From Kiritimatiellota bacterium (lineage in GTDB: Bacteria; Verrucomicrobiota; Kiritimatiellia; RFP12; UBA1067): a DNA stretch of 64,000 nucleotides. Shown piece by piece: positions 34,873 through 63,608 of this stretch (the first letter of the stretch is position 1; the number at the start of each line of letters is the position of its first letter). The stretch is taken from NCBI GenBank assembly GCA_009778475.1, contig WRJS01000002.1, positions 3,836 to 67,835 on the forward strand. Reading direction: 5' to 3'. The translations under genes and the position numbers were made by a program. A model generated the notes under the pieces. That model was not told the origin of the DNA. It saw nothing but the letters and a program-made list of their open reading frames with translations, and did not search any database.

Positions 34873-36039
34873 ATGAAACAAGTAATTGGTACGACTTGTA
34901 GTAGAAAAGCGTGGGCGCATGAATGCGTGTTCGGCTTGGACGGGGAGGAGCCTTATCCAAGGGTTTCGGTCTCCACTGGTTTGTTTTATCCGCAGTGTTC
35001 CTGTCCGTATCGGGTTAATTTTCAAGGCAACGCGTCCGCCGACCTGGAGGGGTTTGTCGCCGCGTTGTCGGGCGGGGGGGGGCTGCCGTGGCAAAACCCG
35101 GACGCCGCCGCCGCCGCCATTGCTGACCCTTCCGTGCGGCTGGTCAGCGAGGAGTGGCTCGCTTATCTGCGCGGCGACTTTGAACGGGTGAAGCGGAGTT
35201 TCCGCGCCATTGAGGGCGGGGGCGCGCGGCTTTACGCCTGTTCCCATGCTGCGCTGGCGGCGGTCAGCACGGGGGATTGGCCGCTGCTGCGGGAGATCGA
35301 GGGCTATTGCAAAAAGCAGATGGTCCAGGGCGCGGGCGCGTTGGCGGGCGTTGTCGCGGAATGGGCGCTGACTATCGTTTACACCGGGGCGCACATTCCC
35401 TCCATGATCCCGGGATGGGTGAAGAGCGGGGATTTTGGCTTCCTCCCCCCCGCATTGAGGTGGGAGGTTTTTTACCGGTATGCCAAGTGGCTGCAACACG
35501 AGAAAAAGTATGAGGCCGCCCTTGCCGCGGCGCGGGCGGGTCTGGTGTTTTACGAGCGAAACCATGGCGTCACATGTGCGGGCACGTATCTGCGGGTCAG
35601 CGCCGCCATGGCCTGCGTGCAACTGGGGCGTCTGGCAAAGGCGCGCGAGTATCTCGCGGATGTGATGGCCGATTGTATGCCCCTGGGGTTCATCACCCCC
35701 TTTGCCGAGAACAGCCCGCACTTGGGCGGTCTGGTGGAGCAGCTTGCCGAGCAGCAGTATCCGGGCGTTCATAGCGCGATCGCGCGGCAGACCCGGCTGT
35801 CCATTCCGAACTGGATGGATTTCCACAACCGCTACTCCAAGAAACACCTCACGCCGCTCCTCACCCCGCGGGAGTACCAGATCGCGAAGGCGGTGCTGTC
35901 GGGCGCCTCGCGCAAGGAGATCGCGGAGCGGTTCCACCTGTCGCAGGGCACGGTCAAGAACGAGATGAGCAGGATTTACCAGACGTTGTTCATCTCCGGC
36001 AAAAACAGGAACGCGCAGTTGGCGAGGCACATCTTGTAG
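34873..36039 (+). CDS. LuxR-family transcriptional regulator (C-terminal HTH_LuxR/GerE domain)
   Basis: C-terminus LTPREYQIAKAVLSGASRKEIAERFHLSQGTVKNEMSRIYQTL is a canonical LuxR-type HTH. Directly upstream of, and co-directional with, tpsB. Confidence 0.7.
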   Translation: MKQVIGTTCSRKAWAHECVFGLDGEEPYPRVSVSTGLFYPQCSCPYRVNFQGNASADLEGFVAALSGGGGLPWQNPDAAAAAIADPSVRLVSEEWLAYLRGDFERVKRSFRAIEGGGARLYACSHAALAAVSTGDWPLLREIEGYCKKQMVQGAGALAGVVAEWALTIVYTGAHIPSMIPGWVKSGDFGFLPPALRWEVFYRYAKWLQHEKKYEAALAAARAGLVFYERNHGVTCAGTYLRVSAAMACVQLGRLAKAREYLADVMADCMPLGFITPFAENSPHLGGLVEQLAEQQYPGVHSAIARQTRLSIPNWMDFHNRYSKKHLTPLLTPREYQIAKAVLSGASRKEIAERFHLSQGTVKNEMSRIYQTLFISGKNRNAQLARHIL

Positions 36040-36091
36040 TGGAGGGCGTTTTGAGGCACAGGATTAATTTAACAGGATTGGCTTTTTACCA

Positions 36092-62601: not shown

Positions 62602-63608
62602 TGGCGGGGGGCCAGCGGCTGGGGACTACGGGACGCCGGGACTACGGGACTACGGCTTTGGGCTGGTCGTCCCCTTGTCCCCTCGTCCTCCTGTCCCTCG
62701 CGCTGAGCCTCCTCATCTGCGGCTGCCGCGAGGAGACCTCCTCTTCCGCCCCGTCCTCTCCGGTGCTGGTCACGGTCAACGGGCGGGCGATCACCCAGTC
62801 TGATTTCGATTCCGAGGCGGAGCGCCGCCCGAACCTCTCGGCGGAGGCGGTCTTGTCGAACCTCGTCGAGCGTCAGGTGATGCTGATCCGCGCTGAGGCG
62901 TCGGGGGTCGCGGACAGGCCTGCGTTCAAGCGCGACATGGAGAACAAACTCATCTCCGAATGGCTTGCCACGGCGCGGGACGGCGACGCGGCGGCCGACA
63001 TCACGGAGGATGAACTCAAGGCCGCCTACGAGGCGCGGCAGGGGCAGATGTTCACGCGCCCGCCGCTCACGCGCTACGCCATCCTCTACCGCAAGGGGCG
63101 CGACATAGAGGAGTTGAAGGGTGCGCTGGCGGAGGCGGTCGCGCGCTTCCGGGCGGACCGCGACGCGGCCACCAACAACGGCCGCCTCCAGGGCTTCGGC
63201 AAGATCGCCGCCGACCATTCGGAGGACACCGTCAGCCGCTACAAGGGCGGCGATATCGGTTGGGTAGGGGATGACACCGCCTCGCGCGTCCCGGCCGAGG
63301 TCCTTGCCGCAGGGAAGGCGCTGGAGGTCGGCGCGGCGGCGGGGCCCGTCGTGGCGGACGGCGGCGTGTACGTCATCATGAAGACCGACGAGCGCGCGGT
63401 CACGCAGATTGATTTCAAGGAGGCCGCGCCCGCGCTGCGGCGGCGGCTGATCGCGGAAAAGAAAGCCGAGGCGGATGCCCGCTTCAGGGCGGGGCTGATG
63501 GAGGGGGTGGCGGTGGTCCGCAAGGCCAGCCCGGCCGCCCCCGGCAAGCCGCCCGACCGTAACCCCTCTGAGGACGCGCCCCCGGCGTTCCCGTTGTCAA
63601 CCAAGTGA
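62601..63608 (+). CDS. parvulin-type peptidyl-prolyl cis-trans isomerase (SurA/PrsA-like), membrane-anchored or lipoprotein-like
   Basis: HSEDTVSRYKGGDIGWVG PpiC signature and a hydrophobic LVLLSLALSLLICGC anchor. The ATG overlaps the upstream stop (TGATG). The N-terminal ~25 codons lie in family-A element A5 (62602-62700). Confidence 0.7.
   Translation: MAGGQRLGTTGRRDYGTTALGWSSPCPLVLLSLALSLLICGCREETSSSAPSSPVLVTVNGRAITQSDFDSEAERRPNLSAEAVLSNLVERQVMLIRAEASGVADRPAFKRDMENKLISEWLATARDGDAAADITEDELKAAYEARQGQMFTRPPLTRYAILYRKGRDIEELKGALAEAVARFRADRDAATNNGRLQGFGKIAADHSEDTVSRYKGGDIGWVGDDTASRVPAEVLAAGKALEVGAAAGPVVADGGVYVIMKTDERAVTQIDFKEAAPALRRRLIAEKKAEADARFRAGLMEGVAVVRKASPAAPGKPPDRNPSEDAPPAFPLSTK
62602..62700. 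repeat. family-A element A5 (overlaps the 5' end of the PPIase ORF)
   Basis: ggggactacgggacgccgggactacgggactacggctttgggctggtcgtccccttgtcccctcgtcctcctgtccc. Confidence 0.6.

Follow-up and report, generated by a model that had tools for sequence, protein, structure and literature searches.

Two kinds of described system bear on the locus studied herein, a gene array in a Kiritimatiellota metagenome-assembled genome (MAG) that we analysed in a 64,000-nt window (the whole stretch of DNA considered, positions 3,836 to 67,835 of contig WRJS01000002.1). In two-partner secretion (TPS), the transporter TpsB recognises the TPS domain of a Sec-exported TpsA exoprotein, which is then threaded through the TpsB barrel; FhaC/FhaB and ShlB/ShlA are the pairs with which we compare. 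The toxin complex (Tc) toxins, known from work on insecticidal toxins, on toxins of human pathogens and on programmable protein injectors, include giant TcA proteins (TcdA1, XptA2, TcdA4, YenA1/A2 and SepA). To our knowledge, classical TcAs lack Sec signals, and we know of no Tc locus with counterparts of the five partner genes described below. Each of the six reference TcA genes with a visible, annotated neighbour had an SpvB/TcaC gene directly downstream. Taxonomically, 96.4% of the TcC proteins in one survey were from Proteobacteria and 3.2% from Firmicutes (PMC7861908).

Nine open reading frames (ORFs), all on the + strand, span positions 34873-63608 of the window, at a guanine-plus-cytosine (GC) fraction of ~0.62-0.72, with a LuxR-type gene (GerE match) at their upstream end. 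A sequence-only reading had reported this co-directional arrangement correctly and had taken it for a candidate undescribed system, ending at 63608, behind a single TpsB with its own regulator. When the window proteins were scanned against Pfam and NCBIfam, most of that reading's domain labels were confirmed, while two proteins, u1 and u2, which it had listed as being of unknown function, had no match, and the largest protein had only sub-threshold PA14 and GLEYA matches. The array does not end at 63608, since another gene, with an apparent signal peptide, starts at 63643 and continues past the window end. Nor does it appear to be one system. Specifically, our results suggest two units side by side, a TPS pair (36341-44802) and a conserved six-gene module (47751 to past the window end, at least 25 kb), the latter best read as an uncharacterised, Sec-exported, cocoon-less TcA-like envelope apparatus. 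Toward this explanation, taken as a whole, we lean slightly. The idea of an undescribed multi-gene array thus survives for the genes from u1 to the peptidyl-prolyl isomerase (PPIase) and beyond, with their exported giants and their own PPIase, and falls for the TPS, LuxR and leucine-rich repeat (LRR) genes.

Gene order across related genomes

Co-directional giant genes behind a TpsB call for a synteny test before they are called one system. The genes that make up the module in the window are as follows.

47751 to 48743, + strand: u1, first module gene; 330 residues, apparent signal peptide
48827 to 50605, + strand: u2, second module gene; 592 residues, apparent signal peptide
50752 to 60057, + strand: the giant; 3,101 residues, apparent Sec signal peptide, start in agreement with the public gene call
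60145 to 62601, + strand: Cadherin_3/Calx-beta protein; 818 residues, apparent signal peptide
62601 to 63608, + strand: parvulin-type PPIase, probable lipoprotein; 335 residues
63643 to 64000, + strand, running off the window: sixth module gene, tandem immunoglobulin (Ig)-like repeats, signal peptide

An alignment of u1 orthologues, used as the query, revealed relatives in 324 species-level genomes, from which 80 loci were kept for tblastn with every window protein (loci are given L numbers where they must be told apart). These u1 relatives are spread over Kiritimatiellia, Lentisphaerota and Verrucomicrobiota (including Luteolibacter, Haloferula, Opitutia, Limisphaerales and Chthoniobacterales), and their cultured carriers include Luteolibacter marinus NBU1238, Luteolibacter sp. 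Populi (CP161812) and Pontiella sulfatireligans F21. In 74 of the 80 loci u1 is followed by u2, and in 58 of the 80 the order u1, u2 and the middle third of the giant is complete, the remainder being mostly truncated contigs. A second scan, anchored on the Cadherin_3 gene, found the giant, the Cadherin_3 gene, the PPIase and the Ig-repeat giant in the same order in every sufficiently long locus. The PPIase follows the Cadherin_3 gene in 17 loci, and an Ig-repeat gene follows the PPIase in 10 loci other than the window's own; all nine of these that were checked contain an ORF of 1,491-3,020 codons that is still open at the locus end. One locus (L108) has an altered gene order, with a Cadherin_3-like gene preceding u1.

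The genes farther upstream behave differently. Fifty loci have 8 kb or more of sequence upstream of the module; a TpsB gene was found in only three of these (L009, L011 and L083), and homologues of the LuxR and LRR genes were absent from all 80 related loci, of which L009 and L011 cover only ~1.6 and 1.1 kb upstream of tpsB. Gene-order conservation had been named by the sequence-only reading as a check that could refute it, and the outcome is divided, since the order is conserved from u1 to the PPIase and is not for the TPS, LuxR and LRR genes. Given the conserved order on one side and a rare or absent TpsB, LuxR and LRR on the other, tpsBA, the LuxR gene and the LRR gene therefore lie outside the conserved unit, which, as judged from the compared loci, runs u1, u2, giant, Cadherin_3, PPIase and Ig-repeat giant.

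What else stands upstream of u1 is mixed, with Ser/Thr kinase-WD40 proteins, histidine kinases, glycosidases, DsbD, major facilitator superfamily transporters and PATR proteins; only clear same-strand ORFs were scanned here, as naive ORF calling is noisy in GC-rich DNA. In three Verrucomicrobia loci (L036 6118-9744, L067 2049-5756 and L088 6465-9779), the large ORF closest to u1 on its upstream side, on the same strand and 159-578 nt away, encodes a fusion of a Ser/Thr protein kinase with WD40 repeats. This protein is a possible lineage-specific regulator of the module.

The giant and its module partners

The giant begins with the N-terminus MSKRWMIMLAALPLCVLAGE, a Sec-type signal by inspection, is non-repetitive and contains 6.2% Pro. 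It had been described from sequence alone as a 3146-residue PA14 protein. Its giant size stands, its length is 3,101 residues, and PA14 (22.4 bits) and GLEYA (17.2 bits) both miss their Pfam cutoffs, though these weak matches recur in orthologues. Orthologues share a median identity of 32% in the N-terminal third, against 51-52%, up to 79%, in the middle and C-terminal thirds. The C-terminal 1,200 residues belong to a large family, with 1,555 clusters at 50% identity in a protein library of 1.84 billion representatives, and the matching region sits at the C-terminus of nearly all listed full-length proteins (2.3-5.3 thousand residues). Since a search with the last 1,202 residues gave only proteins of up to ~2,100 residues, full-length orthologues came from the loci and from an exhaustive search. 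Outside the Planctomycetes-Verrucomicrobia-Chlamydiae (PVC) bacteria, the source names among the matches to this region include Magnetoglobus, Omnitrophica, Phycisphaeraceae and Thermoanaerobaculia. A homologue of the region from Candidatus Magnetomorum (P0130) has been named "TolC family protein, partial" by NCBI, a label that suggests a weak outer-membrane-channel-like helical signature.

Fold and profile comparisons point from this C-terminal region to TcA. An AlphaFold 2 (AF2) model of residues 1902-3101, built with 70 sequences, has a mean predicted local distance difference test score (pLDDT) of 78.6 and a predicted template-modelling score (pTM) of 0.68, and contains three helices, each 68-90 residues long, that lead into a beta-rich C-terminal domain. 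When this model was compared with the PDB by Foldseek, the top 16 matches were all TcA chains (XptA2, TcdA1, TcdA4 and YenTcA; E 1.1e-8 to 1.8e-3, over 624-1,087 columns), and the next family appeared only at E 0.1. The Foldseek TM-scores against TcA were low (0.13-0.17), as is expected because the comparison spans flexible multi-domain proteins. The C-terminal beta domain, taken separately, also matches a TcdA1 fragment by fold. Further, we aligned the giant family with 11 plasmid-borne TcAs (SepA of pADAP and ten diverse others) using hhalign in local mode, which gave a score of 50.4 (E 1.9e-4, probability 48%, 225 columns). All controls scored lower, with 35.7 for the reversed TcA alignment, 16-34 for eight local column shuffles and 22.7 for the u2 family. 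The alignment is in register at the hairpin tip (lP..Gla against PNiFGLa) and at AYDYE against AyqyE, and the SepA segment aligned with the giant's hairpin is, from its position, presumably the pore-forming domain.

The giant thus resembles TcAs in its size, in the predicted C-terminal order of a helical region, a long-helix hairpin and a small beta domain, and in a lectin-like variable region placed where TcAs have their receptor-binding domains. The predicted domain after the hairpin would resemble the TcB-binding domain. Weighing the evidence on both sides, including the contrary points gathered below, we consider it likely that the modelled C-terminal third has a true TcA-type architecture. 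There are also differences. The giant has an apparent Sec signal peptide and no adjacent tcB/tcC (SpvB/RHS) gene, and the module occurs in Kiritimatiellota, Verrucomicrobiota and Lentisphaerota, where it is conserved like a housekeeping machine. Domains of the SpvB, propeller or RHS type were absent by Pfam from the module neighbours in the window, including the Ig-repeat protein. No RHS/YD cocoon gene was found beside the module by a crude YD-motif scan of ~130 loci, ~100 of them with the module, a scan of low sensitivity, whose sole match lay in an unrelated locus and which missed the one RHS gene known to stand near a module (L003, ~8 kb away).

The partners are less readily compared with described proteins. 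For u1, the searches gave no Pfam, NCBIfam or PDB sequence match, and an alignment of five sequences has a mean column identity of 64%. The window's u2 is identical to the NCBI protein FWG50_00460 and has 99 homologues, none informatively named. In its AF2 model (pLDDT 88.3, pTM 0.85), strands from the N- and C-terminus together form a beta domain into which a helical domain is inserted, and no PDB fold matched the model at E < 0.001. Sequence searches of the PDB with u2 and with the giant likewise yielded no useful match. In length, u2 reaches ~860 residues in Haloferula/Luteolibacter-type genomes (L003 10001-12580) and 1,461 residues in L083 (10978-15363).

The gene that always comes next after the giant encodes the Cadherin_3 protein (Cadherin_3 6.2e-11), whose N-terminal ~200 residues are conserved, with invariant residues and a DGxPDWW motif. 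The sequence-only reading had called it an RTX/Calx-beta protein. The RTX label fails, as the protein has one GGxGxD motif, the giant has none and HemolysinCabind was not matched; the Calx-beta match (7.4e-4) is under the cutoff. The PPIase gene, whose start overlaps the Cadherin_3 stop, was rightly identified as a parvulin by that reading, with Rotamase_2 at 1.7e-7 and 32.5 bits (cutoff 27) and Rotamase at 25.5 bits (cutoff 21.7). On an identical metagenome contig the Ig-repeat gene has been called as 2,995 residues (Big_9 9.9e-58, Cadherin_5 5.8e-26 and Cadherin_4). A search with the last 900 residues of this second giant matched only generic tandem-95-repeat proteins, and no known secretion signal was found in it beyond the apparent N-terminal export signal.

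A C-terminal pattern, Y.V..S.DL..W ... GF[FI][RK]V, is common to the Cadherin_3 protein (62300-62601) and the LRR protein (47250-47533) of the window and also ends a cadherin protein that L003 encodes upstream of its module (~8000-8160). The Ig-repeat giant of L001 (~22100-22456) shows the first part, Y.V..S.DL..W, with the sequence ending 9 residues short. This C-terminal domain has no Pfam match and is a possible sorting tag.

Two-partner secretion genes, hairpins and other neighbours

The genes between the LuxR-type gene and u1 are listed here.

34873 to 36039, + strand: LuxR-family helix-turn-helix (HTH) regulator gene; 388 residues, GerE 5.7e-9 at residues 330-375
36341 to 38758, + strand: tpsB, Omp85/ShlB-family transporter; 805 residues, ShlB (PF03865) 9.4e-26, Omp85 6.3e-11
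38917 to 44802, + strand: tpsA, TPS-domain exoprotein; 1,961 residues from its MKVFNFF start, TPS (PF05860) 3.7e-31
44810 to 47533, + strand: ORF of the BspA-type LRR protein; LRR_5 1.7e-94 in six stretches, true start somewhere downstream of the hairpins

The two tps genes form, as had been claimed, a textbook TPS pair, and by their domains they would make an ordinary type Vb system. STVRGY lies at TpsB residue 697, and ILNRV and LINPNGILFG lie at TpsA residues 88 and 112; TpsA also matches DUF5649 five times and TIGR01901 at 5.1e-25. With their ShlB barrel, TPS domain and NPNG motif, the genes at 36341-44802 resemble FhaC/FhaB and ShlB/ShlA. They differ in the unusually long, Ala-rich N-terminal extension that precedes the TpsB barrel, in lying outside the conserved module, and in that the genes downstream have no TPS domains. 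Specifically, neither Pfam nor NCBIfam gave a TPS match for any of the six proteins encoded after tpsA, from the LRR protein to the PPIase. In TpsB, no POTRA Pfam match was seen at E <= 0.01. TpsB orthologues occur in L009 and L011 (59-65% identity), with a distant one in L083 (33%).

In the LuxR-type protein only the C-terminal HTH domain was seen; no receiver or autoinducer-binding domain was detected, and the N-terminal 320 residues had no match in Pfam or NCBIfam. A 301-nt AT-rich spacer separates its gene from tpsB. By its gene context, the LuxR-family gene appears to be a neighbour outside the conserved module.

Most junctions of the array hold long hairpins with a GGGAC 5' arm, a GTCCC 3' arm and an 8-nt period. 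The five stable ones are these.

38760 to 38906, + strand: hairpin E1, tpsB/tpsA junction; GGGAC/GUCCC blocks with 8-nt period, minimum free energy -71.3 kcal/mol, z -3.6
44778 to 45212, + strand: nested hairpin E2; outer arms GGAGAGTGGAGTGT at a 14-nt period, inverted repeats I1, I3, I4 and I12
47636 to 47722, + strand: hairpin E3, upstream of u1; -65.5 kcal/mol, z -8.0
50618 to 50730, + strand: hairpin E4, upstream of the giant gene; -59.2 kcal/mol, z -4.1
62612 to 62705, + strand: hairpin E6, inside the 5' coding region of the PPIase gene; z -4.6

The structured intergenic elements seen in the sequence-only reading are real. Five of six greatly exceed dinucleotide shuffles in stability (z -3.6 to -9.9); the sixth, which separates the giant from the Cadherin_3 gene, is no more stable than its shuffles (z +0.5). 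None of 200 shuffles was as stable as E1, which contains repeat families D2, D13 and D16. In E2, an inner GGGAC-type hairpin (44990-45096; -82.8 kcal/mol, z -9.9) is enclosed by GGAGAGTGGAGTGT repeats, which form 88-nt inverted arms (44778-44865 and 45097-45212) upstream of the LRR gene, and the whole region folds at -300 kcal/mol. The G-rich arm of E6 codes for the long n-region of the lipoprotein signal and its C-rich arm for the hydrophobic core. The G-rich hairpin arm also matches the G3N5 quadruplex pattern. Because the TpsA, LRR and giant ORFs read through these intergenic elements, they are over-extended at their 5' ends.

The core motif of the hairpins occurs in 18 copies, against 0.3 expected, all within 38.7-62.7 kb and none in the first 38 kb. 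No Rfam family was found for them, with only miRNA-like noise matching, and they are essentially absent from the orthologous junctions of relatives, the exception being degenerate versions at the Cadherin_3/PPIase junction of L089 and L090. We read them as a genome-specific repeat family that has colonised this operon, with a possible role in mRNA processing or stability. Intrinsic terminators between the genes were considered and rejected. No hairpin is directly followed by a T-run, the nearest lying ~12 nt past the E3 stem, and because the T-run never follows the stem immediately these are not canonical terminators; a consensus scan found no surplus of terminators or promoters.

The LRR gene, correctly assigned to the BspA type by the earlier reading, is flanked by 96%-identical hairpin copies (D6: 44974-45067 and 47612-47705). 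It looks like a recent, lineage-specific insertion, because these near-identical hairpins bracket it and because it is absent where tpsA abuts u1 in L009. A partial GGAGAGTGGAGTGT-type copy lies immediately past the gene (47525-47580), and the bracketing by these repeats and by the near-identical hairpins resembles insertion scars.

Elsewhere in the window, two more giant signal-peptide proteins are encoded upstream, at 12770-19831 (2,353 residues; PA14, fn3 and PATR) and 20039-24022 (1,327 residues; LamG). Both terminate in a common motif, SRGTI[IL]ML[RK], unlike the C-terminal pattern of the Cadherin_3 and LRR proteins, which suggests a second C-terminal sorting class in the source genome. 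A + strand ORF of 1,416 residues at 8517-12767 has no Pfam match, has junk-like termini and overlaps a 1,288-residue antisense ORF. A low-GC patch lies at 4001-6000 (0.48 against ~0.66).

Candidate functions of the module

All six module proteins start with apparent Sec or lipoprotein signals (N-termini read by eye), and their products would therefore be expected to come together in the periplasm or on the cell surface. There, the giant would oligomerise like TcA into a shell-and-channel device, with an alpha-helical channel entering a membrane, and its variable, lectin-like N-terminus would provide binding. The lipoprotein PPIase would fold the proline-rich giants after Sec export. The Cadherin_3 protein would dock on the giant's C-terminal domain, a role for which it is a candidate because the position of its gene matches that of tcB in Tc loci and because its N-terminal domain is conserved. 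With low confidence, we suggest that the device acts at the producer's own envelope, moving or anchoring the Ig-repeat giant across the outer membrane, and is not a released toxin. This is favoured by the machine-like conservation, the universal export signals and the dedicated periplasmic foldase, as well as by the lack of toxin and immunity genes and the invariable linkage of an Ig-repeat giant without a known secretion signal.

A more specific version, which we regard as quite unlikely, holds that the module is an outer-membrane protein-export or anchoring machine of PVC bacteria, in effect a Tc-type syringe working from the periplasmic side. The giant's helical channel would be inserted into the cell's own outer membrane, the PPIase would hold substrates in a competent state, and substrates, for which the proteins sharing the C-terminal Y.V..S.DL..W ... 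GF[FI][RK]V domain are candidates, would be threaded out or anchored. An analogy exists in the type IX secretion system (T9SS), where a very large outer-membrane protein, SprA, is found with a PPIase (PDB 8gl8, "SprA-PorV-PPI-RemZ-Skp") and where the cargo consists of large Ig-repeat surface proteins with a C-terminal domain. The analogy extends to this sub-mechanism only and homology is not claimed, since SprA is a beta-barrel, not TcA-like, and no T9SS components are present here.

The serious rival to a device at the producer's own envelope is an outward Tc-like toxin, in which the giant would be released (by vesicles, lysis or another route), bind glycans on a eukaryotic or bacterial target and inject cargo encoded elsewhere or form a pore. 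The only experimentally established role of the TcA fold is the translocation of toxin into target cells, the N-terminal third of the giant is variable, as receptor-binding parts tend to be, and the weak PA14/GLEYA matches recur in its orthologues. We nevertheless hold it to be unlikely, given that the insensitive YD scan detected no cocoon gene beside the module, that immunity or lysis genes were not seen, that every component has an apparent Sec signal, which classical TcAs are not known to have, and that the module is highly and stably conserved with a broad spread over free-living PVC lineages. The known Tc loci, moreover, are 96% from Proteobacteria and 3% from Firmicutes (PMC7861908). 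Another possibility, to which we give little credence, is that the giant and the large proteins encoded beside it have a structural role at the surface, as adhesins or as an envelope layer, and that the likeness to TcA reflects convergent long helical bundles. Against this, the giant is non-repetitive and its C-terminal two-thirds are more conserved than is usual for adhesins; furthermore, the 16 best Foldseek matches were exclusively TcA over more than 600 columns, the real hhalign score lay above all ten controls and the C-terminal beta domain matched TcdA1 independently.

The single TPS-centred system, in which TpsB under LuxR control would export TpsA together with the LRR, giant and Cadherin_3 proteins as an adhesin or toxin complex, is in our view very improbable, although all the genes are co-directional with short spacers. 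No downstream protein has a TPS domain, no TpsB was detected upstream in 47 of the 50 module-bearing genomes for which 8 kb or more of that sequence was covered, and the LuxR and LRR genes occur in none of the relatives. Export of the downstream partners by TpsB is thus supported neither by synteny nor by domain content. What speaks for a link comes from the three loci that do have tpsB, each with a TpsA-like gene alongside. Two are close relatives (L009 and L011), and in L009, the closest TPS-bearing relative, tpsB, tpsA, u1 and u2 are 10-16 nt apart or overlapping, with 16 nt between tpsA and u1. The third, L083, is a distant Verrucomicrobia MAG that has a different TPS pair at the same position, its TPS domain having been found by tblastn (39% identity) and missed by a stricter phmmer check.

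These TPS pairs, directly upstream of u1 in two apparently independent lineages, are unaccounted for by a TcA-like envelope apparatus (three linked loci seen against ~0.1 expected by chance, a rough estimate), and several further points also weigh against it. The giant matched none of the TcA models in Pfam and NCBIfam (TcA, VRP1, neuraminidase-like and TcB-binding), nor did any of 32 family members at E <= 5, and a family-profile search against PDB sequences found no TcA. In hhalign, the TcB-binding and shell regions gave no profile signal against TcA, and the probability of the pore-region alignment was 48%. The structural model spans residues 1902-3101 only, and the giant's oligomeric state, location and target membrane are all things that we infer. 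With TcB and TcC not found, the known cocoon-fed injection of toxin cannot operate as described. Finally, the module is followed here up to its sixth gene.

We judge a widespread TcA-like module to be of more interest than a variant of TPS. As far as we found, a conserved exported-giant module with its own PPIase has no earlier description in the literature, and our search for TcA-like proteins in PVC bacteria found no relevant description either. If the TcA-like reading is true, the syringe fold would have a second, unexplored biological use, Sec-exported, cocoon-less and encoded together with a dedicated foldase in a fixed operon of six genes, and this use would be conserved in hundreds of species of Verrucomicrobiota, Kiritimatiellota and Lentisphaerota. 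Moreover, PVC bacteria make many giant surface proteins, and the module would then be a concrete and testable candidate for the means by which these are handled; three cultured carriers exist for such tests.

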